Assembly (NCBI RefSeq): GCF_964188315.1
Contig: NC_135656.1
Coordinates: 1,116,001 to 1,180,000 of the forward strand
Source: Podarcis muralis
Lineage: Eukaryota
DNA length: 64,000 nucleotides
Direction: 5' to 3'
Part shown: positions 1,206 through 27,900 of the stretch, one piece after another
How the letters are laid out: the number at the start of each line of letters is the position of its first letter
Numbering within the stretch: the stretch's first letter is position 1
Notes under the pieces: generated by a model
The model's input: only the letters and a program-made list of their open reading frames with translations
Database searches by the model: none
What the model was told of the DNA's origin: nothing
Made by a program: the position numbers and the translations under genes

Positions 1206-1481
1206 TTACTCATCCTTTCCTTATAAAATGGCTTGTTCTCTTTGTCTTTTAAGGCCCTGCCCCAGTTTATCAAAATCACAAAGCTTTGATTAACTGAATA
1301 TTGAAACCACTATAAATCCCCCCCCCCAAAAAAACTGTATTGCCTGCCTGCTAATGCTGGAAGCCATTCAAATTTTCCAAGGCCATCCAGTGCTATTTTG
1401 AGGCTATTTGAGTGCTATTTTGAGGTTATCTGAGCTCCTTTTGAATAAGGCCCTAGCACACGGCTAGAGAAGATAACTCAA

Positions 1482-3311
1482 ATGGTACTTACAAGACAGA
1501 ATTATAAAGAACTGGGGATTCCTCTAGCTCAAGCACAAGCTGTTGAACCCCCTGCCCCAAAGAAAAAGCAGGCAAAAATTCCATATTATTTTAAACCAAA
1601 AGAAGAAGAAATAAAAAGAAATAAAAACACAGAGAGCCTGCATTTGCACGAATGGTCTGTCGACCGTACCTTGTTCGGAAGGGGCATGGAAGCAGAGGGT
1701 GGAGGAGGAAAAGGAGTCGACCTGGCAACCGAGTTAAAGCAGGCAACTACAGAAAATACAGCCCTTGAGGCCCGACCGGAACAGGAGCCTCAACTGGGAA
1801 ACCCAGAAGCCAGGTCAAGGGAATCCACTCACCAATCTATGCTTGGAGGAAAGGGGGGGTCTCCTGCCCCGACTGAGGTGGAGGAGTGGCTAAACGACAC
1901 AAGAGTTCGACATCCAGATCTGGGCAGCTTTAATTACATAATGACAGGGTTGTACAAAGATCTGTTGGAAGAACATCAAACTCAGCTAATTAAAGAACTG
2001 GGGCCAATTAAAAACTTTATTTCAGAATGTTTGGGTTTGCTCACCTCCCTGATTGAACTAATCAGGAGGAAAGAGGACTGCCACTTTCACAAAGAAGCCA
2101 GCAACAAGCCAAATGGAAATAAAATCCAGCCCAACATCAAAGAAAGGAAAACAAGCAGAGCCAAACTAGTCCAAGGGAAAGTACTGGCCACTAGGAAACC
2201 TTCCTTAAAGGGAAAGAGATCAATGCATAAGAAGAAGCCGAAGAATGTGAAGATGGGCCGAAAGGCTAAGCTGCCCTCCTGGACTGGGAAAATGAACTTC
2301 TCAAAGTTGTTCAAGATTCTGGAGAACTCAAGCACAAAGAACCCCAGCATAACAACGCCAAATAAGAGCCAAAGCCCAAACATTTTAAATAAACATCAGG
2401 TGGCTAGCCCTCCAAGGCTAGTAAAACAATCGCTGCCCTCTAGTGGCAAACTAAAGAAAACTCCAGACCCAAAGCAAGAAACTCCCCAGAAGGGAGCACA
2501 AAAGAGCCAGAACTTAATTTTAATTAAACATAAACTAGTCCTCCTCCCCCTCTTCAAGCATGGAGGCCTTTCCACACCTGCACAACAGAGAATTTATATA
2601 CTTAAGAAAATTGACTTAGTCATCAGAGGCCTTATTCCAGCAGAAAATATTGTCAGCGTGAAATTTCTTCCTTTTGATAAGGCCCAAAACAGAGTTGTGG
2701 TGACCTTTAAGGACTGGTCGGTAACTAAACAAATCTTGGACAAGAGGGACAGGCTCCAGAGGGCTGGCCTGTTGGTGACCCGCCTATTCGAAGAGTCCGG
2801 CGTTCCACCATCCCTCTTAGGAACACGCAAGCCTACTAGTCTGCGCACAGAATTGGAAATGGCTTCTGAAAACTACAAACAAGGCCAACTGGAGGCAGTC
2901 AATATTTCCAAACAGAAGGCTAGGCTCCAAAAAATCTTACTCCCTTCCAATGAACCCAAAAAAGATATCTTAAACGAGAAGGAGATGTTATTTTTAGCCT
3001 CCCTTGAGCAGATTCAACAGTCCCAGGATGCGTTAATAGCTAGGTTACAAACCATAAAAAAATCCTTACTCCTCCAAGGCTTTTCTGCTCCTTTGGAATT
3101 TAATTTTGCTACTAACACGACAAAGCCCTTATCCAACGAAGACTGGACGCGGTGCCGGTTCCTGTCCCCCGAAGAAGTGGGTTCTCCCACACAACCCTTA
3201 ATACCTCAAACAACAATACACCAGGCAGACCTTGCCATGCCGATGAGTAGGAACGGTTCAATCTTTGTGGACGCCTCAGGATCCTTAGATGACATTCAGG
3301 TGGAGGATTGA
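1482..3311 (+). CDS. LINE ORF1, 609 aa, K/P/Q-rich with a putative RRM-like segment
   Basis: Open ATG-initiated frame directly upstream of the endonuclease. The segment IVSVKFL...RVVVTFKD...KRDRLQRAGLLVTRLF resembles the RRM/CTD of LINE ORF1 proteins. Confidence 0.75.
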   Translation: MVLTRQNYKELGIPLAQAQAVEPPAPKKKQAKIPYYFKPKEEEIKRNKNTESLHLHEWSVDRTLFGRGMEAEGGGGKGVDLATELKQATTENTALEARPEQEPQLGNPEARSRESTHQSMLGGKGGSPAPTEVEEWLNDTRVRHPDLGSFNYIMTGLYKDLLEEHQTQLIKELGPIKNFISECLGLLTSLIELIRRKEDCHFHKEASNKPNGNKIQPNIKERKTSRAKLVQGKVLATRKPSLKGKRSMHKKKPKNVKMGRKAKLPSWTGKMNFSKLFKILENSSTKNPSITTPNKSQSPNILNKHQVASPPRLVKQSLPSSGKLKKTPDPKQETPQKGAQKSQNLILIKHKLVLLPLFKHGGLSTPAQQRIYILKKIDLVIRGLIPAENIVSVKFLPFDKAQNRVVVTFKDWSVTKQILDKRDRLQRAGLLVTRLFEESGVPPSLLGTRKPTSLRTELEMASENYKQGQLEAVNISKQKARLQKILLPSNEPKKDILNEKEMLFLASLEQIQQSQDALIARLQTIKKSLLLQGFSAPLEFNFATNTTKPLSNEDWTRCRFLSPEEVGSPTQPLIPQTTIHQADLAMPMSRNGSIFVDASGSLDDIQVED

Positions 3312-3820
3312 AAGACAGATACAGCGAGGGGACACCATGCCGGGGAAACAAAACTCACTAGGTTAGTACCTACCACAAATGATCTTAACAGCTCACTCCA
3401 CCTCAAAAACATTCATTCCATCATCCTAAAGAACAAACGGAGGAGTCTACCTTTGTTCCCCTCACCACCATATTTCCACATCTTATCGTGGAATGTGGCG
3501 GGCTGGCTGTCTAAGCAGGGTGATGCTGATTTTCTGGATTTCCTCTCAAAATTCCAGATTATTTGTTTACAAGAGACCTGGTGCCTAGACTCTCATCCCC
3601 CTTACTTACAGGGCTATGTGGCTTTTGCTACCCCTGCGAAAAAACTAAATAACCGTGGCCGACCTAGCGGCGGTTTGGTCACTTTTATTCCTATAGAGCA
3701 AGGGTACAGGGTGCGACAACTGCAGTGGATGAAGAGTAACAATTTTCAGATTTTACTTATCTCCAATAACACAGGAGGAGATTTTCTATGTTTCAACGTT
3801 TATATTCCCCCCATGTGTAC

Positions 3821-4211
3821 TCTGAAGTTGATTGATTGTTTTGGCGTGACCCCCGCTAATTGATTTACGATCCACAATTAGCTTTAGCACTTTACTGCCG
3901 TCCGACGCGCTTCCCTCAGCTGCGCCACTTAGCTCCGTTGTCCAGTCACGCCCAGCAGAGTTGAACACAGCGGGAAAGCTATCACGTCCTTTGACAAACA
4001 CACACACAGTACAGGTTTGTCTATTTACAGTTGTTTATTCCAACATTTCTCCGGAAACCCAGGACTGCTTGCAGCCATGACAAAACTGCTTCCTTTCCCT
4101 CTCACAGCACAGAGAGGAACAGATCGAAACTCCTCCCAGCTTCGAAAAACTGACGTCAGAATGGTGTGGCATCATGGGAACAATTTAACCTGTTAAGTTC
4201 CAAACCCCACA
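3821..4211 (-). repeat. 3' LTR of the copia element
   Basis: Direct repeat of 7128-7518, preceded on the minus strand by the PPT. It contains AATAAA on the minus strand. Confidence 0.97.
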
Positions 4212-6864
4212 CCCCCCTTTGCCGCACATTCTGACAAGACCCTTTTGAGTTCAACACCTTTCCCTTTGCCTTGTGCCTCTTTCCAGCATTTTTCCCAGGC
4301 ACCTGTTGAACCCCTTCAACACTCTCAGAATCACACTGTGCGAAACCTATCCACGCACTTGTGGCCTGATATCTTTCAGGTGGAATACCCTTTGTTGTGC
4401 GACTGGACCTTCTAGGCACAAACTCAGATGTTACTTCTGACTCACCGCCACCAGAAGGTGTGTCCTCAGCATCACGGGATTCCCCCTCTGATTTAAAGCG
4501 TTTTCGAATCCTCTCCATTACACTCACAGGAGAACTAGGCTCGCTTTTGGGTGCTCTCTTAACATCTTGTGGAGAAGCTACAGAAACCTCATCCTGCTCC
4601 TGACTTTGGTCAGTGACCTGCTCGTCATCATCGGATTCTGAACCCTGATCGTGGACCTGGTCCTCATCACCGGGATCAGCCTCTGCCTCCCTTTCCTCCT
4701 CAGAATCAGATAGGCATTCTGAGAGCAGATCACGCTGGACAGCAGTTTTTGACCTTTTATCCTGCTCATAGAACTCAGCGTGTTTACTGATCAGCACCTT
4801 ACTCTGATCACCTGATGGATATGCAAACCTCCATGCACGTGCTTCTGGCTCATACCCGCAGAAGATCATTTTTCGGAACTTGGATCCATCTGGCCCCTGC
4901 AAAGCAGTAGGTACCGGCACAGACGCACTTGCACCAAACATTCGCAAAAAATGAATCTGGGGTTTCCTGCCATGCAACAACCCAAAAGGTGTGTCACCTA
5001 TCAGTGAATTGTAGGTACGATTCCAGGTGAAGCCCACATACTTGATTGCCTCCAGCCAAAACCTTGGAGGTAACCCAGCATCTGCCAGCATCACCTGTGC
5101 AGCCTGAACCAGAGCCTCACTTCTCAGCTCTGCCACCCCTCTCTGATTGGGTGAAGTCACTGTGTGACGTATCCCTTTCTTGTGAAAGAATTTCTGCAAA
5201 GCAGACCCTGTAAATTGAGCTCCTCTATCACTGGTGACTGCTTGCACTCTGGTGGAAAACCTTTGTTCCACCTCCTCAATCCATCCTTTGATCAGCTGTG
5301 CTGCATCATCCTTGGATTTGAGACCATGGGTCCAGGAATTCTGCGTAAAATTATCCTGCACCGTCAGGAGAAACCTTGCACCTCCCAGACTTGCTTCCCT
5401 TACAGGACCCCACAAATCTATGTGGACCAGTTCAAAAGGTTTTGCGGTTACCCTCTTCACCTTTGGATAACTGCACCCCTTTACCTTTGCCAGTTTGCAA
5501 GTTTCACATCTTACAGCACATCCACATTCTGTAATTTTACAACCTTTGGAAACCTCAGGCAGCACCTGTAGTTCTTCTAGAGAACCATGAGCTGTTTTTG
5601 TGTGCCACGCATGGGCACATGTCACGTGGTTGTTGATTTTAGCACGTAGAGCCTGTGCTTTCCCAACCTTCCCCTCACCCTCCAGAGGTGATTTAAGAAC
5701 AAAGAGATCATTCTGCCCCCTTTTAACCTTGGCAAATATCCTCCCTCCTTTGGAGATTGTGCAGACAGCATCTTCGAAACAAACCTTAAACCCCTTTTTC
5801 AACAAATAAGGCACAGATAAAAGACAGTGGTGCATCCCAGGAACGGTACAAAAGTCCAACTTCTCCTGTAAAATAGAAACATACATTTTGCCAGCATTAG
5901 TTACATTCTTTTTCTGCCCATTTGCAAAAAGTACAGTTTTTCCAGCCGGAATTGCCGTGCAATTCCACATCTCGACAGCAGGGGTATCTGGAATCAAATT
6001 GCAGTTCGCTGCAGAGTCGATTACAAAACAAAGCTCTGAGCCTGTCCCACAGCTGGTTGAGCTGTCCTCAGACAAAGCCAGACTAGCTGCTAGTTGATAA
6101 GCCTCCTCACGTTGTTTTCCACGTCCTTCTCTTGCGTTCCCACGCTGGCCTGTCTTCCCAGGCCTGTTGCCATGGAAACCCGACTGGTTCCCATGAGAGT
6201 TCAGCTGGTTGACCTTGGCAACATCCTGTCTTGCCACTCTGCTCCGGTGGGGGCAATCTCGACGTACGTGGTCAGCTGACTTGCAAATGTAGCAACAACA
6301 AACTTCAGTGGAAAAACACTGCCCGGGGCTCCCAGCTGGCCTGGCCTTCCTCCTTCTGGAACGGCGCCTCCCACCAGCCTGGCCCCCCTTGAAGCTGCTC
6401 TTCGTTTCAGCACAAGTGGAAAGTCTTTTAAACTCGCCTTTGGAACTCTTCACCCTCCCGATCTGTGCACCAGCGCTCCTTGAGGCTGATTGGGGAATAG
6501 GGGCTTCTAGTCCAGCGTCTGCAGGGCTCTGGCCTCCCGCTGAAGCTTCACACAAACCTTTCAGCACATTCCAGGCAGCCCACGCTGATTTCACACCCTC
6601 CAAGTGGGGTCTCAGCGATGCATCAACGCATGCTCTGAGCATATCCAGCTCTCTTTGCATTTTCTGCTGGCTATCTTCAGGCAACGTAGCGTCACAGCCT
6701 GCAACGTCTCCAGCCGCTTTGGCGCTGGGGGTTGGTGGTAGTGGCTCCCTCTGGCTTGCTCCCCAAAGCCCATGGACCAGGAACCACCCCTTTATTCTTT
6801 GCCTCCAGGTTGCCCAACTCTTTAGAGTGAGCTTTTCCACCGGTATGTCCTGGCTCTCTGCCAT
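4156..6864 (-). CDS. Copia gag-protease-integrase polyprotein lacking RT/RNaseH (~900 aa, stop inside the 3' LTR)
   Basis: The first real ATG is at 6864 (MAESQ). Gag N-terminus KLTLKSWATWRQRI..GLW, zinc knuckle CYICKSADHVRRDC, protease FVIDSAAN, HHCC (WHTKTAH..CETC), integrase core HIDLWGP/SDRGAQF/GVAE. The IN-after-PR order is copia-type. Confidence 0.92.
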   Translation of the reverse strand: MAESQDIPVEKLTLKSWATWRQRIKGWFLVHGLWGASQREPLPPTPSAKAAGDVAGCDATLPEDSQQKMQRELDMLRACVDASLRPHLEGVKSAWAAWNVLKGLCEASAGGQSPADAGLEAPIPQSASRSAGAQIGRVKSSKGEFKRLSTCAETKSSFKGGQAGGRRRSRRRKARPAGSPGQCFSTEVCCCYICKSADHVRRDCPHRSRVARQDVAKVNQLNSHGNQSGFHGNRPGKTGQRGNAREGRGKQREEAYQLAASLALSEDSSTSCGTGSELCFVIDSAANCNLIPDTPAVEMWNCTAIPAGKTVLFANGQKKNVTNAGKMYVSILQEKLDFCTVPGMHHCLLSVPYLLKKGFKVCFEDAVCTISKGGRIFAKVKRGQNDLFVLKSPLEGEGKVGKAQALRAKINNHVTCAHAWHTKTAHGSLEELQVLPEVSKGCKITECGCAVRCETCKLAKVKGCSYPKVKRVTAKPFELVHIDLWGPVREASLGGARFLLTVQDNFTQNSWTHGLKSKDDAAQLIKGWIEEVEQRFSTRVQAVTSDRGAQFTGSALQKFFHKKGIRHTVTSPNQRGVAELRSEALVQAAQVMLADAGLPPRFWLEAIKYVGFTWNRTYNSLIGDTPFGLLHGRKPQIHFLRMFGASASVPVPTALQGPDGSKFRKMIFCGYEPEARAWRFAYPSGDQSKVLISKHAEFYEQDKRSKTAVQRDLLSECLSDSEEEREAEADPGDEDQVHDQGSESDDDEQVTDQSQEQDEVSVASPQDVKRAPKSEPSSPVSVMERIRKRFKSEGESRDAEDTPSGGGESEVTSEFVPRRSSRTTKGIPPERYQATSAWIGFAQCDSESVEGVQQVPGKNAGKRHKAKGKVLNSKGSCQNVRQRGVWGLELNRLNCSHDATPF

Positions 6865-7127
6865 CTTCTCCCGTTCTCCCAAGGGGCCCAAGCTTACTTA
6901 CAATCAGTTTCAGCTTCTCTGGCTCTCCCTTCCGTGGAGAAACGTTTTTCCAGCTGCTCTTCAGCTCCGAGCTGCTTCTTAGCTTTTAGCTCTGTGTCTC
7001 AGCAGCTCTCATGCCTCTCAGAAGCAGGCAATTATCTCACCACCTTCTGCCGTAGCTCCGTTGCTCTAAATCGCAACTTCAAAGCTCCCGTGATAGCTTT
7101 ACAATCGGTGATTAAGGATCCATAACC

Positions 7128-7518
7128 TCTGAAGTTGATTGATTGTTTTGGCGTGACCCCCGCTAATTGATTTACGATCCACAATTAGCTTTAGCACTTT
7201 ACTGCCGTCCGACGCGCTTCCCTCAGCTGCGCCACTTAGCTCCGTTGTCCAGTCACGCCCAGCAGAGTTGAACACAGCGGGAAAGCTATCACGTCCTTTG
7301 ACAAACACACACACAGTACAGGTTTGTCTATTTACAGTTGTTTATTCCAACATTTCTCCGGAAACCCAGGACTGCTTGCAGCCATGACAAAACTGCTTCC
7401 TTTCCCTCTCACAGCACAGAGAGGAACAGATCGAAACTCCTCCCAGCTTCGAAAAACTGACGTCAGAATGGTGTGGCATCATGGGAACAATTTAACCTGT
7501 TAAGTTCCAAACCCCACA
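7128..7518 (-). repeat. 5' LTR of the copia element
   Basis: Direct repeat of 3821-4211. It begins TGTGGGG, ends CTTCAGA and is followed immediately by the PBS. Confidence 0.97.
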
Positions 7519-10500
7519 TGTACTTCCTCTCAGACAGTACAAATCTGGGAAGATTTGGAGTCATGCTTGGAGAAGGCCAAAATAGAATTTCCTGACTGGA
7601 ACATCCTGCTGGCAGGTGACTTTAACGCTAGGATAGGCAGTGACATCAATTCGTATGGCTCCAAAACCCAGTTTTTACCAGAGGCAGACTGGTTTATCCC
7701 TTGGAGTTCTGATGAAAAGGTCCTGAATAAGGCAGGTAATACATTACTGGAGATTGCCTTTAAGCATAATTTATACAACCTGCATGGCACTTACATGGAT
7801 AGGTCAGGAGGTTTCTTCTCTTTTATCGGCCCTCGTGGTGCAAGTGTGATTGACCATATCCTGGTCTCTCCAACAATTTTGGAGAGGGCACAGGGTCTCA
7901 GCACTTTTAACAGAACTGAGAGCGACCATCTTCCTAGAGCAATCTCACTAACTCCCCTCGAATCAGGAGGATTACAACATCTACATTGTGCAGTCCCTCC
8001 TCAAGCACCGGCCCCACGCAGGCGCAAATGGAACAGCGAGCTGGAGCTTAAAATTAAACAACACCTGCACTCTCCAGATTTATTGGCTCTGAGAGACCAG
8101 TGTCTTTTACCTAACTTTGATCCTTTTTCATTATATCAGCGGGTCTCAGGGTCTCTTTTCCCATTTCTTATAAACACCAGGCCTCCCAAACAACATAACA
8201 AATCGGGGGTCTGGTTTGATAAAGACTGCCGGAAGCTAAGATCCCTGCTTAGGAAACAACAAAACAAGGTAAAACAGGAGAGGACTCTGTCATCTATGGT
8301 AAACTTCCACAGATGGCACTCTTACTATAAAAACACCTTAAAACTCAAGAAATCCCTTTATAGGAAGGAACAATGGGAGGCACTTGATAAGGCGATTAAA
8401 TCGCGAGACGATAGAAAATTTTGGGCAATAGTAGCACAGGGAGTCTCATCCAAAGGAAAAATTGTAAACAGCAGTATTCCATCCGATGTGTGGTATCAAC
8501 ACTTTTCCAAGCTATACACACCCTCAAATACTGCTAATTCGAGTCCGTCCCTCCCATTGAAGAATGATCATCTAGCTAGTTGGGATCCGGTTACGGAATC
8601 AGAGTGCCTACAGCTAATTAAAACTTTAAAAAATGGCAAAGCTCCTGGTGAGGATATGATCCCCCCTGAGGTTTTTAAATCAAATGCCCAATGGTGGGCC
8701 ATCTTTTTGGCCAAACTTTTTACGGCAATAAACAACACATGTAAAATCCCAGCAAATTGGAAACTAAGTGTGGTAGCCCCTATCTACAAGAAGGGAGACA
8801 TTCAAGATCCAGCAAACTACCGCCCTGTAAGCCTTCTGGACACTGCATACAAACTTTAGACCCGGTACTTATTAAACAAGCTGGTAGATTGGGCGGACCA
8901 TTCTAACCTGTTCAACCAGGAACAGGCAGGATTTAGAAAGGGCCACAATACGATAGGTCACTGTATGGTACTACAGACCCTGGTAGCTAAATATGCAAAA
9001 GCGTATAAGAGCAGACTCTTCGTGGCCTTCGTTGACTTGACATCTGCCTTTGACTCAATCTGTAGAGATAGACTATGGAAAAAATTATATGAAACGGATA
9101 TTGACAGACGACTTTTAAAAATTCTCAGAGAGTTACACACAGATATTACAGTCAAAATCAGAACTGGGCCATCGGGAACTCTTACGGACCCACTGCCATT
9201 GGGGAAAGGGGTCAAACAGGGATGCCTGCTAGCCCCATTTCTTTTTAACTTTTATATAAACGACATTGTTCAGTACATGGCAAAGTACAAGTCATCGGCT
9301 CCAGCCCTTGAAGGTAAACGTCTGAATATATTGCTATATGCCGATGACATGGCTTTAATGGCACTCACCCGAAGAGGCCTACGCAGCATGCTGGAGGGGA
9401 TCGCAGCCTACTGTTCCCATAACTCACTAAAGATAAACTATGACAAAACAAAAATTGTGGTGTTCACTAGAGCTCGCCACACCTTTAGATGGTCTTTAGA
9501 TGAACATGTGATTGAACAGTGCCCTTTTTTTAAATATCTGGGTGTTACATTCCAGGCTACATCTAGTTGGTTAGCCCACTTTAAGGCTGTAACCATCCTA
9601 ACACGAAGAACAATTGGTGTCCTGCTTAATTTCTTTCATACCCGGGGAGGACAATTGGTGATCCCAGCATTAAGAGCTTTTGTTGGGAAAGCTATTCCCC
9701 AGATGTTATATGGGATAGAACTCTGGGGGTGGAACCAGAGGCTGTTGGAACGGCTCGAAATTTTGCAAAATTATTATCTCAGGAGGATTCTAGGCCTTCC
9801 TCAAGGAACCCCAGCAGCTTTCTTGAGGGTGGAGGTTGGATTACCCTCTGTGTCTGCCAGGGCCCATTTAAGATTCCTACGATTTTACATCAACCTTGCA
9901 AATACCTCAAACACCTTATTAGCCAAACAAGCCTTTGTATCTCTTCAAAAGAACACCACTTGGCATCAAAACCTATCTGAGATCCTGGTTAGATACACCC
10001 TACCGGAGTTTAATATCCTCAAACTGTGGAGCCCGGACAAAGTTCGGGAATGGATCCTGCAGAGAGACGCTCTGTTAGATATCACAAAAATACAGAACCC
10101 AGGGTCCTCCCACTGGCTTCCCCGACTGAAAACAGTCAAAACCTGCGCCAATTACTTAGCGAATATCACCAATCCCACCCTTCGGAGAGCCTTCACCATG
10201 GCCTGTTTTCAAACCATTCCTACGGCCTATCTGTCAGGCAGATATGCAAAAATCCCAGTAGAGCAGCGTATATGTCCTTGTCATATGAGAACCAAAGAGG
10301 ATCTCATACATTACATGTTGTATTGTCCTATCTATTCAGCCTTCAGGGATGCGATGTTACAAACTATTCCCAAATCAATAGTCAACTCTGAGGACCAAGT
10401 AAAGTTTTTACTGGTGGACGCTGATCCACGGATTTCTCACGTGGTAGCAGTCTTTGTGGTGAAGGCTATGAAAACTAGGGTATGGTTCCTGGATGAAACG

Positions 10501-11029
10501 GTGAGGTCCCTTCCATTGATCTCCTAACCTGTTGCTGTATCTTCTTTCCTGAATGGTGGGGTTTTTTGGGTAGTTTCCTTGCTGGGATAGCATGACATGA
10601 ATTTTAGCTTACTTTTATAATTTTATTGTTTATCTTTTAACAATGTTTTATGGTATTTTGTGTAAAGGCATGGACCTCACAAATTTAATAAACTTGTTGT
10701 TGTTGTAATGATGGAAGTTTGAATGACTTGAGGTGTATTGCTCTTTCAGAAAGCACAGTGACTCAGGTGGAATGAAGTGGGCACAGAGCCAGGGGGTGAA
10801 ATGACCCTCATTCCCTCACTGGATGTGCAGAGAGGTCTGTTGCCTCTTTAGGATTGTTAGGGCTCAGGAATTGGCTCTAGTACTGAGGTTTGGGGTTCAT
10901 TCTCTGGGTAGCAAGTTAAATCTCACGGCAGTCAGCTAGTCTCAGATCAGGACCTTTGAATCTTTGGATAAAAATCCTGCTTTAAAAGAAAGACCACTCA
11001 ATGTATCATTAGGATTTTACCTGCTCATC

Positions 11030-15900: not shown

Positions 15901-18900
15901 AAAAAACAGGATTTCTCATTTCCTGGGACGGTTGAGGGCTATGCTGTTCCCTAACTGTAAAGTTCTGTATTATATGTGAGCTTTCACAAAAGCCACTTCT
16001 GGAACTGTAGAGGAGTATAGTGCAAGTTTAGTGCCCATTTCTGTCTTATTTGCTCCCAGAAAAAAATCTGTTTGCAAATAATATGGAAACAAATGCTAAA
16101 CTTGCACCATATTCCACTATAACTCTGGAAGTGGCTTTTAGATCATGTGAAAGCTCAAATATAACATGAATTGCAAGTGGAGAGTGCTGTTCTGGACTCA
16201 AAGGGTCTTTGGACAGGTTCAGCAAGGCGCTTCTGATATTCCTTTTATACTTGAGATCAATTAGGAGAGGTTTGAAAGCTCATAAGAGAAAATCACTGAG
16301 GGCCACCATGGCTATGTGAGGCGCCACTCCCTAGGTTTCAAGCTCTGCTCCCTGATGTTTAGGGTCTGAGATTCAGCAGAACTGATCACCCTAGAGAAGA
16401 ATATAAGTTTGGGGTGGGGGGAAGTAGGCTGTAAGCAGAGACCTTTCTAACCCCTGGATCCAGCAAGTGTTAAAATATAAGTCCGGCTAGTTTCCAGTGT
16501 TGAGGTGATAGTCCAGGTGATGGGCCATTAAGGAAAACAAAGTGGATCTCTGAGAGGGTATTTAGGAAAAAGACAAAGGCAAGAGTTGAGAGTTCAGTGA
16601 GTGAGCCAGAGGGAAAAGGAGCAAGCTGGAGAGAGAGTCAGAGCAACAATTGAGAACATTGTTTGATACTTTCTGTTTGGAATCCAAGGCTGTGGCTATG
16701 CGAGAAACCAGACCTTCTTGGGCTTTTAATGCTGTGATCCCCTCCATTGTAGGATCGGGTTGCATATGTATTTGTAAATAAATCATAGAGACACCACAGT
16801 CTCCGCTAAGCCCCATTCCCAAAGGAAACATGAACCTTGGGTGAGAATCTGGAAGACCTTGGATCTCACACCATGCAGGGATTGGAGTGGCAGGCAACAA
16901 TATGTTACAAGACTTACATTCATAATCATGTCCCGTTCGTGGCTTTGGACTCTCATCAATCAATTCACTCAGTTCTGATGAAAGTGTTGTTGCTTAAAAT
17001 TTTAAAAGAGGAAAAGGGGGAAATGTTAGAAATTTAAAGCTGAAATGAAACATATTACATGGCAGACGTTATGATGCACGGAGGTGTGATATGGTTTATT
17101 ATTATTGAGAGACAGCAAATCAGGAGAGGTTTAGCGATGAAATGCTTAGTAATAACTTTGAATGTCAGTGTCATGCTAATCAATCAATTAACTTTGAAAC
17201 AATGCCTCTCTTTCCCACACCCCTCCAAACATCACAAAGTGGTTTGAAGTTGGCATTACGCTAATTGTATAACAAATTATCTCCTAATATAAGAGGGGGC
17301 AGGGTTTCTGTTGAGTCAGGTGATTAGCTGTGGGAGGAGCTTATCAGAGCTCGCAGGGCAGCAGCTGAAGAAGGTGCAAAAAAGGTTTTTATTGTGTGTG
17401 TTACTTGTGGCTGATTAGCTGCTCTCCCTGTGCAAAGGTCAGAGGGGGCAGGGTTTCTGTTGAGTCAGGTGATTAGCTGTGGGAGGAGCTTATCAGAGCT
17501 CGCAGGGCAGCGGCGCGCAGTTTGATCCATCTTTTAGATTTAGGGGAGCTAGTCTCAAACGTTTGTTGGGGGAGACCTAGGTTTTTTTGGGGGGGGTTAT
17601 TTGTCCTGTCTTCACGCTTTTTATGATGGAGGACCACTGTAGTCACCCCCAACGACACGTTTTCAAGATGGAGGGTGAGGGAACAGCTGCAGTCGCCTGC
17701 AGTTCCTGCGCAATGTTTGCCATCTTGCCAAAGGTTGCAGGAAGCTTTACCTGCAGCAATTGTATGTTGATTGCCCTCTTAGAAGACAAAGTCCAACAAC
17801 TGGAGAAACGTGTAGCTACGCTCCAAAGAATTAGAGAGCTGGAGCTCTTCTTGGAAGCAACAGAGATTGTCCCCCACATAGTTCCGGGCAAAGACCTGGT
17901 TTCCTGGGACAAATGACCGTGGTGCGTTGGCACAGCCTGGGGGTTCAGCCACGGCAAAGTCTGGGTGTAGCCGGTCGAGCGGTGACCTGAGGCGGCGGCC
18001 CATAAGCAGTTCCGCAGGACTCCTCCCTGTGGCCGCATGAGGGGTGATGTGTTGCGCGAACAAGTATTCGGCGACCCGCTCATGCCAGTCTCCCCGGTCC
18101 AGGCGCGCCAGTGCCTCTTTTGTCGAGCGCACCATTCTTTCCGCTTGCCCGTTGCTGGATGGATGAAAGGGTGCCGTTAGGGCATGGCGGATGCCCAGTC
18201 CCAAAAGATACCGCTCAAACGTGCCTGATGTGAACTGCGGTCCGTTGTCAGAGACAAGGACATCAGGACACCCATGCGTTGCAAACAGGCCTCGCAGCAC
18301 CCGGATGACAGCTTCGGTAGTGGTGGAGGGCATCAGGGCGACCTCCAGCCATTTGGAATAGGCGTCCACCACTACCATAAAGGTCCGGCCGTGAAAGGGG
18401 CCAGCCAGATCGATGTGCACCCTCGACCAGGGTGTCTTTGGCGTCTCCCACGTGTATCCCTTAGCTGCCGGTGGTGCAGGCCTCGACTCCTGGCACGCTT
18501 GACAGGCGGACACCCAGGCAGTGATGGCATCGTCCATATTAGGCCACCAGACGTAACACCGAGCCAACGCCTTCATTTTGACAATTCCCGGGTGGCCAAC
18601 GTGCAGAGCCTCCAGGACGCGCTGACGGAGTCCCTGGGGAATCACGACGCGGTCTCCCCACAGCAGACAGCCGCGATGAGCTGAGAGTTCATGTTGTCTG
18701 GTTGCGAAGGGCTGGAACTCCGATGCAAAGGGCCCTTGTGGCCACCCCCTCCACACCCAGTTGAGCACCCGGCTGATGGTGCGATCCTGGGCAGATGCGG
18801 AGGCCACAGTGGCAGCCGACACAGGCGCTGCCGGAAGATCCTCAATCAGAAGGAGCGATGAAGCTGGAGCCGGGTCTTCCACAAATGCTGGAAGAGGGCA

Positions 18901-21900
18901 ACGGCTGAGGGCGTCGGCATGGCCCATCGATTTCCCCGGGCGGTGGATGAGCCGGTAGTGGTAGGCAGCCAGGAAAACAGTCCATCGCAGCATGCGTGGT
19001 GAGAGGACCGGTGGAGTTGGACGATCACCGGCGAGGAGGCCCAGGAGTGGCTTGTGGTCAGTGATGAGGTCAAAAGTCCTGCCATAGAGGTATTCATGAA
19101 ACCTCTTCACTCCAGCCACAAGTGCCAATGCCTCCTTGTCGAGCTGGCTGTAATTCCGTTCCGTCAGAGATAGTGTCCTGGAAAAGTAGGCGAGCGGTGC
19201 TTCTCTTCCATCTGGAAAACGGTGACTAAGGACAGCCCCGATGCCAAAAGGTGAGGCGTCGCAGGCAAGGACCAGCGGCCTGGATTCACTGTACTGTACC
19301 AGCACACTGTCCGAAGAAAGGAGAGCCTTGACCGCGTTGAAGGCCGCCGTCTCCCGATGACCCCAGGCCCAAGGCGTCTTAGTGCTAAGGAGTCGGTGAA
19401 GAGGCTCAGCCACTGTGGCTTTGTGGGGCAGGAACATGTTATAAAAGTTCAGCAGCCCCAGGAACGCCTGCAACTCCGTTTTGTTCTTTGGAGTGGGGGC
19501 CTGCTGGATAGCGCGGATCTTGGATGTGGTTGGATGAAGACCGGAGGCATCGATAAGATAGCCCAGGAACTCTACCTGTGGAACGGCGATCTGGCACTTC
19601 TCCCTTTTTACCTTGAGCCCGGCCTCCTGGAACCTGGTCAGCACGGCACGGAGGCGCTCGAACAGCTGCTGGTGTGAGTCTGCAGACACCAAGACATCAT
19701 CAAAATATGGTACCACGCCCGGAAGCCCTTGCAGGAGACGCTCCATAAGGCCTTGGAAGATGCCAGGAGCCACACTCACCCCGAACTGCAACCGGCGGCA
19801 ACGGAATGCCCCCCGGTGGGTGACGATCGTCTGGGCTTCAGCAGTGGCATCATCGACTGGCAGTTGTTGATAGGCTTGGGCAAGGTCCAGCTTAGCGAAG
19901 ACCTTACCCTCACCCAGGGAATGCAGCAGGTGTTGGACAACAGGAACCGGATAAGCATGCTGCTGAAGTGCCTTGTTGATCGTGCACTTGTAGTCAGCGC
20001 AGATTCTCACCGACCCATCTGGCTTGACAGGCGTGACGATGGGGGTTTCCCACTTTGCGTGGTCAACCGGCTCCAAAACTCCTTGGGCGATCAGTTTGTC
20101 CAGTTGTTCGTCCACCTTAGCCTTGAGAGCAAAGGGAACCCGGCGTGGCTTTAGCTTGATGGGGGCGACTTGTGGATCCAGGCTAAAGGAGATGGGCGTA
20201 CCTGTATATTGGCCCAAGGTGCCGTCAAAAACCTCGGCAAAGTCTTTGACCAGACCCTCAGTCTCTGCGTTAGAGATGCAGTTGATGCCGGTGACTTCCA
20301 GGCCGAGGGCATCAAACCAGTCTAGCCCTAGGAGGCTTGGCCGCTGACCTTCGACCACCACCAACCGGAGCAGGCCCGAAAAATCCTTGAAGGCGATCCG
20401 GAACCGGCCAACGCCTACCACGGGAACGTCGTTTCCCTGGTAGTCTCTCAGGTGTACGCGGTGAGAGTCGAGTTGCCTTTTGGACACTCTGGGTACCAGT
20501 CTTTTGATGGTGCTCCATGACACGATGGACAGGGCAGACCCGGTGTCGATCTCCATGTCACATGGAGCTCCTTCAATGAGCACCGTGACGTTCAGCTTGC
20601 GTCTCGTAGGCGAGTCGGTTTGGCCAATCGTGGTTCCAGACGGGCAGCGGCAGTTGGTGAGAGCGAAACAACTTTCCTTGGCAGACTGGAGTGAAGACTT
20701 GGACTTGCGAGTCGATGAAGGGGGGTTGTCAGACGGAGCCGATCGGCAGACCTTAGCGATGTGGCCCCTTCTGGAACACCTCCTACAGATGGCGTCTCTG
20801 AATCGACACTTGGCACGGGAATGGTTGCCTCCGCAGCCAGCACATTCCGGTTGGCCCTTGGACTTCTGTTGGAACTTCCTGCGCTCCCGCTTTGTCTGGT
20901 GCACATCATCGTCTTCACTGGAGGATGCCTCCTCACTGCTGGCCTCTTCATGATGCACCGGAACGGGCTCCCTAGCAAGACGCAGGCTGCTGGACTTGCG
21001 GATCTCCTGAGCGGAGCGTTCAGCAGCTTCTGAGGCCACAGCCTCCTCAATGGCTTTCTGTAGCGTGAGGTCTGGCTTGGCTAGGAGACGCCGTTGCAGA
21101 TGGATGTCCCGGACCCCGCAGACGATTCGATCCATCAGGGCATCGTCTAAGTCTCGGAACTCACAGTGCATTGCAGCCTGTCGCAGGGCGGTGGTGTAGT
21201 TGTTGATTGACTCCCCCTCTGCCTGGTTCCTGTGGTAGAACGCATGGCGGGCAGCAATCTTGGACGGCTTTGGTGCGTAGTGGTTGCGGAGCTTCTCTTG
21301 GATCGTGTCCCATGGTGATGCCTGGACTGCTTCAGGCGCAACCAACGCTCGGGCCGTCTCAAACACCTCAGGCCCACAGAGGCTGAGGAATAGGCCCCGC
21401 TTCCGATCCTGTGATACTGCTGTCAGTTCGTTGGCTTGGAGGTAGCAGTCGAACCGAGCGAGGTAGGAGTCCCATGATTCAGAGGCTGGCGCAAACGGCG
21501 GTAGAGGCACAAGTGAAGCCATGATTCCGATGCCGGCGTGAAGGGCGATGGATGGAACACAGTGCTCTAGCCAGAACAGTCAGCTCTGAACTGGTTCTGC
21601 CCAGTGATTTCGCTCAGTGATTTCGCTCTGTGATTCAGCTCAGTGATTCAGCTCAGTTCAGAGGCTGGCCGCATCTGGCTGTGCTCTGATGTCCATCTAT
21701 CCCACCTTCGTCGCCAGTATTAAGTCGTGGGTTGACATAGCAGCCGGCACAGCAATTTCTTCAAGTAGCTCTTTATTCTGGTAAGCTGGAATAGAACTGA
21801 CTGTGAACAGCTCAGCCGGCCTGTATTTATAGGCAGCCGGCTGTCACATTGTAACCACAACAGCTCAGAGTTCCCGCCTAAAATAACTGCCGCGGACCTG

Positions 21901-24900
21901 AGTGAAAACTATCTACAGACCTGAGTGAAAACTATATACAGTATCCCCCTGTTGGCCCAGGGTGAAACTACACTACATAACAAATTGTATGTTGATTGCC
22001 CTCTTAGAAGACAAAGTCCAACAACTGGAGAAACGTGTAGCTACGCTCCAAAGAATTAGAGAGCTGGAGCTCTTCTTGGAAGCAACAGAGAACACCGTCT
22101 CCACCAAGGAGGAGACAGGGGACACCCCTGAGAAGGAGGCTAGTTCACCAACACAGGTGCCAGATATATGGAGAAACGTGACTCAAAGAAGTAGGAGGCC
22201 CAGGGTTCGCTCTGATTGTTTAGAAATACACAATCACTTTGAAGTCCTCTCCCCTAGCATGGAAGACGAAGAACAGACGCCATTTGAGGATCTCTCCCTC
22301 ATTACAGTCAATCAGGTATATGAAGACGAGCAGCAAAGTCAGTCCTCAGGGAATGTGCAGGCGACCTTGGAACGGACAGCTCACGGAAGAACCCCGACCA
22401 AACCTAAGAGGAGGCGTGTAGTGGTGATAGGGGATTCCCTACTGAGGGAAACAGAAGCAGTGATCTGTGGGCCTGACAAGATGTCTCGGGAGGTGTGCTG
22501 TCTCCCCGGGGCTAAGATCCAAGATGTAACTGAACGACTGCAAGGAATCATAAAACCCACTGACAAATACCCCTTCCTCTTGGTTCATGTGGGAACCAAT
22601 GACACTGCAAGCAATAGCCTCCAGAAGATCAAAAGAGACTATGAGGCTCTGGGCAGGAAATTGAAGCAATTAAATGCACAAATTGTCATCTCATCTGTCC
22701 TCCCAGTTGAACGATGTGGCCCAGGGAGAGAGGGAAAAATAGTGGAAGTGAACAGCTGGCTTCGCAAATGGTGTAAACAGGAACGGTTTGGATTCTTAGA
22801 TCATGGACTGCAGTTTCTTGAAGATGGACTTCTGGCAAGCGATGGGCTGCACCTCACAGCGGTTGGGAGGAATGTTTTTGCCAAAAATCTCAGAAACCTC
22901 ATCAGGAGGGCTTTAAACTGACTAATGTGGGGGAGGGAGACAGTGCTCCTGAAGGTAGGAGTCTATCAATTGATGAAGATGATCATCCAAATGTCATAGA
23001 CCAAATGGAGCAAACACCACACAGACCTAGTGGTGGGAGGAAAAAATCCTTAAATAAGAGACACGGGGGAATGATTAATGGACTTCAATGTCTGTACACT
23101 AATGCGCAAAGCATGGGAAATAAACAAGATGAGCTTGAGCTCTTGGTACAGCAAACTAAATATAGGCATCACTGAAACCTGGTGGGATAAGTCCCACGAT
23201 TGGAATGTAATAATGGAGGGATACAATCTAATTCAGAGAAACAGACCAGACAAGAAAGGAGGAGGAGTGGCGTTATATGTCAGGGATGTGTATACCTGTG
23301 AAGAGATCCAAGATTTAGAACCTCAAAGCCAAAGTGAGAGCATTTGGGTCAAAATTAAGGGAGAGAAGAATAACAGAGACCTCATTGTGGGAGTTTACTA
23401 TAGATCCCCAAGCCAAACGGAGGACATAGATGATGCCTTCCTGGAACAGATGGCCAAGCATGCAAAAGGAAGGGAGATAGTAGTAATGGGGGACTTCAAT
23501 TACCCGGATATTTGTTGGATGTCAAACTCAGCCAAGAGCATAAGGTCAAACAGATTCCTCACTGCCCTTGCAGACAACTTCATTGTCCAGAAAGTGGGAG
23601 AAGCAACAAGAGGAACAGCCATTTTAGATCTGGTCCTAACCAATGTTGATGACCTGGTTAGTGGGGTAGAAGTGGAAGGATCATTAGGTGCGAGTGATCA
23701 TGCTCTTCTGAAGTTTACTTTACAGCGGAAAGGAGCAGCCAAGCATACTAGGACTCAATTTCTTGACTTTAAGAAAGCCGACTTCATAAAATTTAGGGAA
23801 GTGCTGGGTGAGATCCCATGGACAGTAATACTAAAAGAAAAGGGAGTTCATGATGGCTGGGAGTTTGTTAAGAGGGAGATAGTAAAAGCACAACTTCAGG
23901 CAATACCAATGAGACGGAAACATGGAAGGCGCCTAAAGAAGCCAGGGTGGCTATCTAAAGAACTTTTAACTGAGTTAAGATTAAAAAAGGATGTGTACAA
24001 AAAATGGAAAAGGGGGGAAACCACCAAAGAGGAATTCAAACAAATAGCCAGCACATGTAGACACAAAGTCAGAAAAGCTAAAGCACAGAATGAACTCAGG
24101 CTTGCTAGAGAGGTTAAAAGCAACAAAAAAAAGGCTTTTATGGGTATGTCCGTAGCAAAAGGAAGAACAAAGAAACAGTGGGGTCACTCAGAGGAGAAGA
24201 TGGTGAAATGCAAACAGGGGACACAGAAAGGGCTGAACTCCTCAATGCCTTCTTTGCCTCAGTCTTCTCCGATAAAGAAAACAATGCCCGACCTGAAGAA
24301 TTTGGAGCAAATGATTCAGCAGAGGAAACACAGCTCAGAATAACTAAGGAGATAGTACAAGAATACTTGGCTAGTTTAGATGTAGTCAAGTCTCCAGGGC
24401 CAGATGAACTGCATCCAAGAGTATTAAAAGAACTGGCAGATGTGATCTCAGAACCACTGGCAGTCATCTTTGAGAATTCCTGGAGAACAGGCGAAGTCCC
24501 AGCAGACTGGAGGAGGGCAAATGTTGTCCCTATTTTCAAAAAGGGGAAAAGAGAGGACCCAAATAATTACCGCCCAGTCAGTCTGACATCAATACCAGGG
24601 AAGATTCTGGAGCAGATCATTAAGCAAACAGTCTGTGAGCACCTAGAAAGGAATGCTGTGATCACCAATAGTCAGCATGGATTTCTGAAAAATAAGTCGT
24701 GTCAGACTAACCTGATCTCATTTTTTGACAGAATTACAAGCCTAGTAGATGAAGGGAACGCAGTGGATGTAGCCTACCTTGATTTCAGCAAGGCATTCGA
24801 CAAGGTGCCCCATGATATTCTTGTAAAGAAGCTGGTAAAATGCGGTCTTGACTATGCTACCACTCAGTGGATTTGTAACTGGCTGACTGACCGAACCCAA

Positions 24901-27900
24901 AGGGTGCTCATCAATGGTTCCTCTTCATCCTGGAGAAGAGTGACTAGTGGGGTGCCACAGGGTTCTGTCTTGGGCCCGGTCTTATTCAACATCTTTATCG
25001 ACGACTTGGAAGATGGACTCAAGGGCATCCTGATCAAATTTGCAGATGACACCTGTCAGGGGTTCAGGGAGTGAGGCACAGATGAGGGAGGAGACTGAGA
25101 GCGAGGGGGAAGAATCCAGGAACGAGGAGGAGGAGGATGACAATGACTTGAGGGCTTCCATGAGTCTCTCAAGTGAATTGGAGGATTCCCAAAAGGGGCG
25201 CCCCTGGTCAGGCCAAGGGGAGCCACAGGGGGGACTCGTCAGGAGCAGGGGAGCAGCAGGGAAACCCCGAGTGGGAGTGGGAGATCGGGGCAGGCTTCCC
25301 AGCCGGAACGGAGTGAAGAGGGTGGAGTTCCCAGTGTGACAGGCGGAGCAGAGCAGGAAGCAGAGAGGGGAAGGAGATCGGGGCAGGACGTCCTGCCGGA
25401 AGGGGCGGAGAGTAGTACAGAGAGTAGTATAACTGTCGAGAGGAAGGTCAGGGGTAGCGAACGCGCGCCAAGTTCAAATGTGGAGGCGCGCGGAAATGCG
25501 GAGAGCCCGGAGGAGGAGCCTGGTCCCAAAGCATGGAGGAGGGGGGAGCAGGCGTCTGGGGACTCAGCGTTAGGGGAAAGCAGGAGGGAAGGAACCCAGG
25601 GGGGCAGAAAGACCCTGCGGAAAAGGAAGGACAGGAAGAGGTGGACCAGCACAAGCCTCTTAAACTGGTGTAGAGGCGGAACTGATTCAGAGGGGACTTC
25701 AGCAGTCTAAGCATAACAGACGTGGGGCTGCGCGCCTCGGCTGTGGAACAAACAATGTACTTCAATAAAGACTTTTGTAAATAAAGTGGACTTGGCGTTG
25801 GTCTCTTGTGAGCTGGGACCTGAGGCGGCCCTGACAACACCAAACTGGGAGGGGTGGCTAACACCCCAGAGGACAGGATCACACTTCAAAATGACCTTGA
25901 CAGATTAGAGAACTGGGCCAAAACAAACAAGATGAACTTTAACAGGGAGAAATGTAAAGTATTGCACTTGGGCAAAAAAAACGAGAGGCACAAATACAAG
26001 ATGGGTGACACCTGGCTTGAGAGCAGTACATGTGAAAAGGATCTAGGAGTCTTGGTTGACCACAAACTTGACATGAGCCAACAGTGTGACGCGGCAGCTA
26101 AAAAAGCCAATGCAATTCTGGGCTGCATCAATAGGAGTATAGCATCTAGATCAAGGGAAGTAATAGTGCCACTGTATTCTGCTCTGGTCAGACCTCAATT
26201 GGAGTACTGTGTCCAGTTCTGGGCACCACAGTTCAAGAAGGACACTGACAAACTGGAACGTGTCCAGAGGAGGGCAACCAAAATGGTCAAAGGCCTGGAA
26301 ACGATGCCTTATGAGGAACGGCTAAGGGAGCTGGGCATGTTTAGCCTGGAGAAGAGGAGGTTAAGGGGTGATATGATAGCCATGTTCAAATATATAAAAG
26401 GATGTCACATAGAGGAGGGAGAAAGGCTGTTTTCTGCTGCTCCAGAGAAGCGGACATGGAGCAATGGATCCAAACTACAAGAAAGAAGATTCCACCTAAA
26501 CATTAGGAAGAACCTCCTGACAGTAAGAGCTGTTTGACAGTGGAATTTGCTGCCAAGGAGTGTGGTGGAGTCTCCGTCTTTGGAGGTCTTTAAGCAGAGG
26601 CTTGACAACCATATGTCAGGAGTGCTCTGATGGTGTTTCCTGCTTGGCAGGGGGTTGGACTCGATGGCCCTTGTGGTCTATTCCAACTCTATGATCATAT
26701 GATTCTATGATAAGGGTGGGAAACCTGTGGCCCTGCAGATGTGGACTGCAACTCCTGTTATAGACGCCCCCATATATAAGATTTCCCCTATTTTGGGGGA
26801 CTCTGATTTAAGAAAATGGGGGATGGTCCCTGTGTATAAGACACCCCCAAATTTTGGACATTATTTTCAGGGGGAAACGTAGTCTTATACACGGAAAAAT
26901 ACGGTATTTTATTTCATAAAACCACTTGATTGTAAACCTCAAAGTGCTTTACAAAAAGATAAAACAATAAAATTAAGAAAAAAGTCACAACCCTAGTTTA
27001 AAATAATTGAGTAGACTTATCTAAACAAGAATATTTTAGCAGGTGCCAAAAAGAGTACAGTGAAGCCTGCTTGATCTCAATAGGCAGGGAGTTCCAAAGT
27101 GCAGGTGAAGACCCAGTTCTTATAAATGTGGAACGGGCATTATGTGACGCCTGTTGTAGTGCCAGTTCTTTCAATCAATGTGGTTGAGTGGCGCATGTGC
27201 AGTAATCTATTGACCATGTTTGTTTGGGTTGATGGGCGATGGAGACCAGTAACACGAGTAACAATGGGAACATTATATTAGACCTTTTATGGGCCTCTAC
27301 ACAGACCAGAACCTTGTTGGTTGTGTTGCGGCCGCTTTACCGCCAGGATCTACCATGGGATGAGGCAGCTTTTCCTTCCCAGGTGTCTGCTTCTGCTCTG
27401 TGGGTCCTGGACTCTCCCAGCTCTGTCCTTTGGGGCATCTCGACTCTTCCAGCCAAGGTTCCCTCACGCAAGAGTTGTCTGGGTTCCTCTTACCCTGCTC
27501 TTAGCTCCAGCCAGGCCTTAGGGATCCAGCCCCTGGTCATCCAATAAAGTTTCACTTGAGGATCCCGGATATTTCTCCCCTGCTGCCCTATTTTTGGCAC
27601 CGCAAGCTAGAAGTTCACCCCACAGCATCCTTGTTCTCGCCATCCCTTTCCAGCCTAGCAGAACATGGACAGTTACTCTCCCAGGCCATTGCTTAGCAAC
27701 TTGGTGAGATGGGGTGGATGCTTCAGAGAAGAGAGTGTGGCCTCCCTCACTGACCAGTCTAACCAGGAGACATGCACGAAAACCCACCCTGCTCCTCCTG
27801 GCCTGGGAAGTCAGGAGATAAGAGAACTTCAATAATGTGTCACCTGCATGCAATATGCCCCCTTTTTCGGTCTGGACAATTTCGCTGGCTTTCCATCCCT

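Follow-up and report, generated by a model that had tools for sequence, protein, structure and literature searches.

Long terminal repeat (LTR) retrotransposons that encode protein but lack a reverse transcriptase (RT) are already known as such. IAP 1-delta-1 of the mouse is described as a non-autonomous endogenous retrovirus (ERV) in which gag and pol are fused in frame and the fusion acts in cis (PMC6466679), and semi-autonomous RT-less elements are reported from wheat, namely RLG_Sabrina_SA and RLG_WHAM (PMC9744471) and RLG_Quinta (PMC11302176). TR-GAG elements and beet families with decayed domains are described in PMC13570524. For the ERVK[2-1-LTR] D-type elements of cattle, defective copies are said to dominate new insertions (PMC10924933). 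In the excerpted text of PMC11889832, Mtanga is the only copia clade found in Lepidosauria, on a classification by RT/RNase H, and 90% of the Mtanga copia clusters come from squamates. We have analyzed an RT-less Ty1/copia element at positions 3821-7518 of a stretch of Podarcis muralis DNA (the window: 64,000 nucleotides, positions 1,116,001 to 1,180,000 of contig NC_135656.1). An initial annotation of this window had treated copia elements as uncommon in amniotes, a view that does not apply to squamates, where they are reported to be abundant (PMC11889832). From the comparisons presented here, the element probably belongs, as a very young copy, to an RT-less lineage that is mobilised in trans and whose polyprotein likely helps in the packaging and integration of its own RNA.

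The element is 3698 bp long and lies on the minus strand, as do all of its parts. Its boundaries agree with the initial annotation: two LTRs of 391 bp, without a single difference between them (5' LTR, 7128-7518; 3' LTR, 3821-4211), are flanked by the perfect 5-bp target-site duplication (TSD) TGTAC (plus strand, 3816-3820 on the left and 7519-7523 on the right), and a purine run, the polypurine tract (PPT), lies ahead of the 3' LTR at 4212-4220. Directly after the 5' LTR is a primer-binding-site (PBS) core, GGTTATGG (7120-7127), and the Ty1/copia hallmarks of paired LTRs, 5-bp TSD, PBS and PPT are thus all present. The same PBS core is found in RT-bearing copia families of this genome; its presumed partner is an internal stretch of the initiator tRNA-Met. 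No tRNA genes were found in the window. The LTRs begin with TG and end with GA (U5 end at 3821-3822) rather than CA. Ends in GA, TA or AA occur in 18 of 62 TSD-verified RT-less copies and in 2 of 12 RT-bearing copies, and three TSD-verified RT-less copies start with TA; the 5-bp TSDs are perfect regardless of these unusual termini. The integrase that serves the RT-less copies tolerates non-CA ends.

A single open frame of the expected length, about 2.7 kb without stops, extends over 913 codons from stop to stop (4156-6897), or 902 codons from the ATG at 6864 (4156-6864), and terminates 56 nt within the 3' LTR. This entry into the LTR had been considered a special trait, but it is shared by 6 of 8 RT-bearing copies of the L164 family that were checked. 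The domain order is the Gag, protease, integrase order of Ty1/copia elements, and in the nearest RT-bearing relatives RVT_2 follows rve. Pfam searches with the open frame matched rve and SH3_retrovirus, while RVT_2 and Retrotran_gag_2 gave no match in this frame; a protein search with the whole frame returned five matches, all of them distant copia elements with 23-29% identity. The polyprotein begins with a capsid N-terminal domain of four predicted helices (6547-6864), and a predicted disordered linker (6301-6546) replaces the capsid C-terminal domain. A CCHC zinc knuckle (6250-6297), recognized by alignment and by a weak Pfam match (E 0.17), is followed by the protease (5683-6036), with DSAA at 6007-6018, and by the integrase (4759-5619), which has an HHCC motif, a D-D(32)-E core with a three-residue loop deletion, and an SH3-like domain. 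The last part is an acidic linker with a pre-RT tail (4237-4758), ending at the junction of the RT-RNase H deletion near 4235. Neither of the two attributes of autonomy, RT-RNase H and a two-domain capsid, is therefore found in this element, and the in-frame deletion has left one fusion frame, as in IAP 1-delta-1.

The initial annotation had read several of these features correctly from the sequence. The capsid does break off after AWNVLKGLCE, and 32 residues do separate the second D and the E of the integrase, in place of the canonical D,D(35)E spacing; a spacing of 32 is found in 78 of the 91 cores from RT-less copies, as opposed to 35 in 16 of 18 RT-bearing cores. The protease also reads DSA as stated, although this is not a sign of erosion, since DSAA is found in 71 of the 87 proteases of RT-less copies and the autonomous L161 has DSA as well; because of L161, DSA was also rejected as the mark of a dead protease. 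The tail after PPERY was previously interpreted as vestiges of RT. It aligns instead to the pre-RT linker of RT-bearing relatives (VQKLPQEEARKWHEAMQKEMNSMES in L164), and in this alignment the LPxGKK and YKARLV motifs are absent from the tail of the window element.

An integrase search of the genome gave 139 scored matches, with 59-100% identity and with frames of at most 983 aa in every case. Of these, 92 were examined: the window copy, 11 copies reached via the LTR, and 80 taken across the identity bands. An LTR search, in which the best 40 of 601 candidates were scored, yielded 20 loci for inspection, 7 of which were single LTRs without integrase. RT was found in none of the 92 copies. Two LTRs are present in 79 of them, and the length is 3464-3962 bp in the 75 that were measured. 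Both ends could be placed in 78 loci; 62 of these are flanked by a perfect 5-bp TSD, and the TSD sequences are of 59 different kinds. The proposal of a recently active RT-less family, with many copies that share the RT deletion at different sites, is thus borne out. The family is, however, far older and more structured than had been proposed: its subfamilies span 60-99% integrase identity, and median LTR divergence is 0-0.8% in the young subfamilies and 1.3-1.7% in the old ones. In an integrase tree (with one in four copies of the young clade retained) the RT-less copies form one clade (58 of 58 rows, Shimodaira-Hasegawa (SH) support 100), and in a second tree they are again monophyletic (18 of 18 rows, 100/100) and nested among RT-bearing families. 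The deletion has brought the pre-RT linker up against the final bases ahead of the PPT; it is common to the aligned subfamilies, with the youngest trimmed further. The RT-less lineage likely arose once, long ago. Splicing was considered as the source of the deletion and, on inspection by eye, rejected, as the junction keeps GT-like and AG-like flanks and has a short microhomology.

Some individual copies are of separate interest. Two 3.2-kb derivatives, L049 and L040, have young-clade LTRs (the pair is identical in L049) around an internal part that is nearer to the old L191 group and from which the integrase core has been deleted. The RT-less L043 (G000:C20:10621700-10631600) has a 5.3-kb insertion within its integrase, with LTRs 99.7% alike. 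Contig C20 of G000 (30 Mb) harbours most of the old RT-less and RT-bearing copies, with blocks of repeated identical matches, a pattern that might be expected of a non-recombining sex chromosome.

The window copy has inserted into a LINE (long interspersed nuclear element; plus strand, 1449-10527) with an ORF1 of 620 codons (1449-3311), an ORF2 endonuclease that is split by the insertion, and an RT at 8860-10527; besides the copia insertion, ORF2 has one in-frame stop, at 8857-8859, ahead of the RT. Contigs that join 3815 to 7519, the empty site, were obtained from 4 of 4 other public runs, in two of them as a single unbranched contig (2086 or 1781 bases). These joins point to a polymorphic and very recent insertion, although such contigs show presence only and a near-identical paralogous LINE could also give the same join. 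Contig depth across the host LINE varies several-fold between runs, suggesting variable copy number. In RNA runs with the same species label (tissue not given), 55-115 reads of the family were found per 10.5-12.8 million; most of them match only in part and at 90-99% identity, and in two bulk libraries the sense strand predominates. The RNA signal is weak and at the level of the family.

Selection on the encoded proteins was assessed with codon models for seven domains of the young clade (46 copies, with identical rows collapsed). The ratio of nonsynonymous to synonymous change (dN/dS, omega) was 0.19 for full Gag, 0.23 for short Gag, 0.34 for protease, 0.29, 0.34 and 0.48 for the parts of the integrase, and 0.54 for the linker. 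An omega of 1 was rejected in 7 of 7 domains (p 0.002 to 1e-17), as was a neutral expectation derived analytically with the CpG mutation rate raised tenfold. Copies reached via the LTR, which are free of protein-score bias, gave 0.38 and 0.33. Over the whole lineage omega is 0.15 for full GagA, compared with 0.18 for RT. Because omega is below 1 in all of the retained domains, the protein matters and not the open frame alone. On these codon comparisons the enzymes of the RT-less lineage appear relaxed and Gag tightly constrained. The bias toward in-frame indels that the initial annotation had suspected is also seen: 19 of 32 indels are in frame in coding sequence against 11 of 76 in the LTRs, and for shared indels the counts are 8 of 12 against 5 of 50 (all tallied by hand). 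A comparison of singleton with shared changes, as a test for stronger selection on inherited ones, gave 159:119 vs 123:129 (p 0.056).

Two kinds of Gag are found among the 92 copies: 39 are short and 38 are full (31 of type A and 7 of type B), with 15 untyped. Full GagA resembles the Drosophila copia capsid in sequence and fold; the full Gag of the sister copy L081 matches 8vvw, a copia-type capsid fold, with E 4e-7. The window copy has a short Gag, that is, a capsid N-terminal domain and a zinc knuckle. Its model has four helices to residue 109, disorder over 111-187, and then the knuckle. The matches of the short Gag in Foldseek were not significant, the best (E 2.8) being the copia capsid, and a wider structure search with the model aligned 89 residues to residues 3-92 of the Drosophila copia capsid (Z 10.1, root-mean-square deviation 2.8). 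In the copia capsid as described in PMC11835246, the N-terminal domain (1-90) forms central spokes and the C-terminal domains lie at the capsomer rim; the cut in the short Gag falls at the border between the two. On this model, short Gag could enter a shell built by others, although by itself it would not be able to form a closed one. In L046 and L085 the capsid C-terminal domain has been lost a second time, and recently, again at the border of the two domains but in GagA. Among named proteins, the nearest come from Podarcis lilfordi and make a lacertid host likely, in agreement with the lizard proposed in the initial annotation: a full GagA is 81% identical to that of L081, and P0008 has the N-terminal domain followed by the short-Gag linker. 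P0149, a protein labelled P. muralis, has at its end the tail of the RT-less L129/L137 subfamily; as its source may be the same assembly, we do not treat it as independent evidence.

Across the integrase tree, Gag types and LTRs occur in shuffled combinations. L081 and the window copy, for example, are 98.9% identical in the integrase core but only 82% in the LTR, and have different Gag types. The GagB cassettes of the RT-less L137 and of L215, a member of an RT-bearing family, are 96.1% identical over 641 nt, and the short-Gag cassettes of L156 and the L164 family are 86% identical over ~380 nt. If template switching (PMC6894440) is the cause, these swaps of segments between RT-less and RT-bearing elements imply that the two are co-packaged.

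RT-bearing copia families are numerous in the same genome (150 matches scored). Those nearest to the window copy are the L164 and L179 families and a broken group, L191, which is closest to the oldest RT-less subfamilies. The integrase of the L164 family is 52% identical to that of the window copy, and 9 of the 14 copies examined have a frame of at least 1340 aa. The L173 family is complete, all 14 copies having a full Gag and a frame of 1384-1385 aa, with an LTR divergence of 0-0.8%; it shares the PBS core and a similar PPT with the RT-less copies, and almost no other DNA. The U5 of the window copy matches L164 and L171 weakly (z 3.6 and 4.1), and none of these matches favours L173. In L215 (G000:C4:3581500-3588500, at 1553-6408), of the RT-bearing L179/L195 family and with LTRs 99.8% alike, there is an independent, in-frame internal RT deletion that starts at the same spot in the linker as that of the RT-less lineage.

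We therefore favour, as stated above, a lineage mobilised in trans whose protein aids its own RNA. Such elements would likely borrow reverse transcriptase from RT-bearing copia families, and their RNA would be co-packaged in mixed particles, where short Gag could dock on the capsid of full Gag and bring in its own RNA and enzymes. The gag-protease-integrase protein would likely be retained for its aid to packaging and integration. In one subfamily of seven copies the catalytic E of the integrase is replaced by G; six of these have a perfect TSD, so another integrase likely inserted them, and the integrase of the RT-less lineage may accordingly be weakened or dispensable for catalysis. Any benefit of the protein would be only partial, as frameshifted copies spread too. 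A number of observations weigh against this reading. Of the 46 close sisters in the young clade, 20 are broken, 23 open and 3 unscored; only 4 of the 11 LTR-found copies have open frames, and four frameshifts are each common to 2-3 copies. The suggestion in the initial annotation that broken sister copies would speak against a selected family thus applies in part, some breaks being shared, while a lone deleted copy among full-length relatives was not what we found. The branch to the window copy is about six times longer than that to the RT-bearing L164 (summed tree path ~0.99 vs 0.16 changes per site), and selection on the integrase core, taken across the entire lineage, has roughly half the strength seen in RT-bearing relatives (omega 0.30 vs 0.14). 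No more than 0-3 RNA reads match at >=99%, none of them assignable to the window copy. The searches scored best candidates only, with 47 of the 139 integrase matches outside the examined set, and help in cis, although likely, is deduced here from sequences.

A rival account would also say who the partner is. RT-less copies with full Gag may build the capsids while RT-bearing copies with short Gag give RT and a canonical integrase, with double-defective copies such as the window element riding on both. This reciprocal complementation is compatible with the favoured reading and, while possible, is clearly the less probable claim. It is in keeping with the absence of the capsid C-terminal domain from 8 of the 9 long-frame L164-family copies, the lack of any frame above 1063 aa in 20 further loci of the L179 family, a GagA as constrained in RT-less copies as is RT, a single clade (SH 96) for the short Gags of RT-bearing and RT-less copies, and the first 29 LTR bases of the window copy, which match L179 best (z 8.8, against 1.7 for L173). 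Yet the complete and young L173 family could serve all of the defective classes; L170, the ninth long-frame copy, which is without its 3' end, could give full Gag and RT together; and the L164-family LTRs are somewhat older (median divergence 0.48%, 1 of 11 pairs identical) than those of short-Gag RT-less copies (median 0, 11 of 20 identical). With similar reserve, one may picture a long-lived lacertid copia consortium in which RT-less elements supply the full capsid and RT-bearing ones the polymerase; an ancient half-capsid adaptor would serve the two alike, and the window element would be a parasite of both. The adaptor, an N-terminal domain with a zinc knuckle, would then dock stowaway RNA and enzymes into particles.

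The remaining explanations do without a gain from the protein, or without a lasting lineage. Selection may act only against poison, if misfolded protein spoils the mixed particle that carries its own RNA and intact protein brings no advantage. The spread of broken copies, the success of the subfamily without the catalytic E and the relaxed omega of the RT-less integrase would all fit, but not translating at all would avoid the cost, yet open frames have lasted while the integrase diverged by ~1 change per site, and most of the coding indels that copies share preserve the frame; we consider this account unlikely. It is still less probable that selection acts on autonomous masters missing from the assembly, of which the RT-less copies would be repeated, short-lived deletion products. 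The independent deletion in L215 indicates a deletion-prone site, and one assembly was searched, with part of the integrase matches outside the examined set. This idea is opposed, however, by the absence of RT from all 92 examined copies, across subfamilies that are 60-99% identical, by the short frames of all 139 scored matches, by a common tail and junction that are eroded further along the tree, and by the RT searches, where no RT family with the integrase of the RT-less clade was found among the loci examined. Evasion of nonsense-mediated decay, one cause suggested in the initial annotation, would explain the in-frame indel bias and a stop within the 3' LTR in 33 of 34 open copies scored. 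Early-stop copies spread nevertheless, RT-bearing relatives also stop inside the LTR, and amino acids are conserved in every domain, contradicting decay as the sole cause. It may still contribute, but an open frame with an irrelevant protein is the least credible of these accounts.

Set beside the systems described at the outset, the favoured reading, a trans-mobilised lineage with a helpful polyprotein, has a close parallel in IAP 1-delta-1, where an internal deletion also created one open fusion frame and a very successful, trans-mobilised element. There the fusion protein is reported to help in cis (PMC6466679), whereas such an effect in the copia lineage would be deduced; IAP 1-delta-1 is betaretrovirus-like, one subtype near its helper, while here the lineage is copia and its many subfamilies are as little as 60% identical in the integrase, with the entire RT-RNase H gone, protease and integrase kept, and a helper at most ~53% identical. 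The wheat elements Sabrina, WHAM and Quinta and the TR-GAG elements, as described in the sources given, resemble the lineage in being RT-less with an intact Gag, in their long persistence beside diverged partners and in a proposed contribution of Gag. They keep Gag or Gag-protease only; here the integrase is also retained and, like the protease, is under selection, and the Gag is halved in the window copy and the other short-Gag copies. The cattle ERVK D-type elements are similar in that defective copies recombine with competent ones; they are retroviral and close to their helper, a central segment is swapped, and long-term protein selection is not among the properties reported in the excerpted text of PMC10924933. 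The squamate Mtanga clade is the likely parent group, although an RT-less lineage cannot be placed by the RT/RNase H method of PMC11889832. In the literature searched we found no description of this RT-less copia family or of a half-capsid non-autonomous element, although Repbase, Dfam or supplements may contain such families. Barley BARE-2 is reportedly a Gag-defective copia element that borrows Gag from BARE-1. It resembles the RT-bearing short-Gag families L164 and L179, which likely need Gag in trans; the window element differs in being also without RT, and its short Gag is a conserved half-capsid and not a silent gene. This half is the opposite of that in p22, the C-terminal-domain restriction factor of yeast Ty1. 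Ty1 integrase reportedly has a role in reverse transcription (titles cited in PMC8487063), a lead for the retention of a poorly catalytic integrase.

Two traits are distinctive here: integrase and protease have been under long-term selection although RT is missing, and RT-bearing and RT-less lineages have a conserved half-capsid in common. No account of either was found in the literature searched. Non-autonomous LTR elements are usually seen as decaying hitch-hikers; in this lineage protease, integrase and two Gags have stayed under measurable selection while the integrase accumulated about one amino-acid change per site, with insertion ongoing. One vertebrate genome thus offers many natural domain combinations in RT-less and RT-bearing copia elements, and the contribution of defective elements to shared particles, whether as cis help, Gag donation or mutual dependence, becomes testable by vertebrate population genomics. 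A large and active share of the copia diversity in squamates would escape surveys that are based on RT.

Other features of the window include an open gypsy-type pol of 1266 codons on the minus strand (17779-21579; RT, RNase H and integrase) and LINE pieces at 21929-26537, 39699-43654 and 54618-56730, the first of which has a GDSL-esterase ORF1 at 21929-22921. A 272-codon frame on the minus strand (49309-50127), for which a protein search gave no close match, shows weak leucine-rich-repeat matches and is perhaps a host exon.

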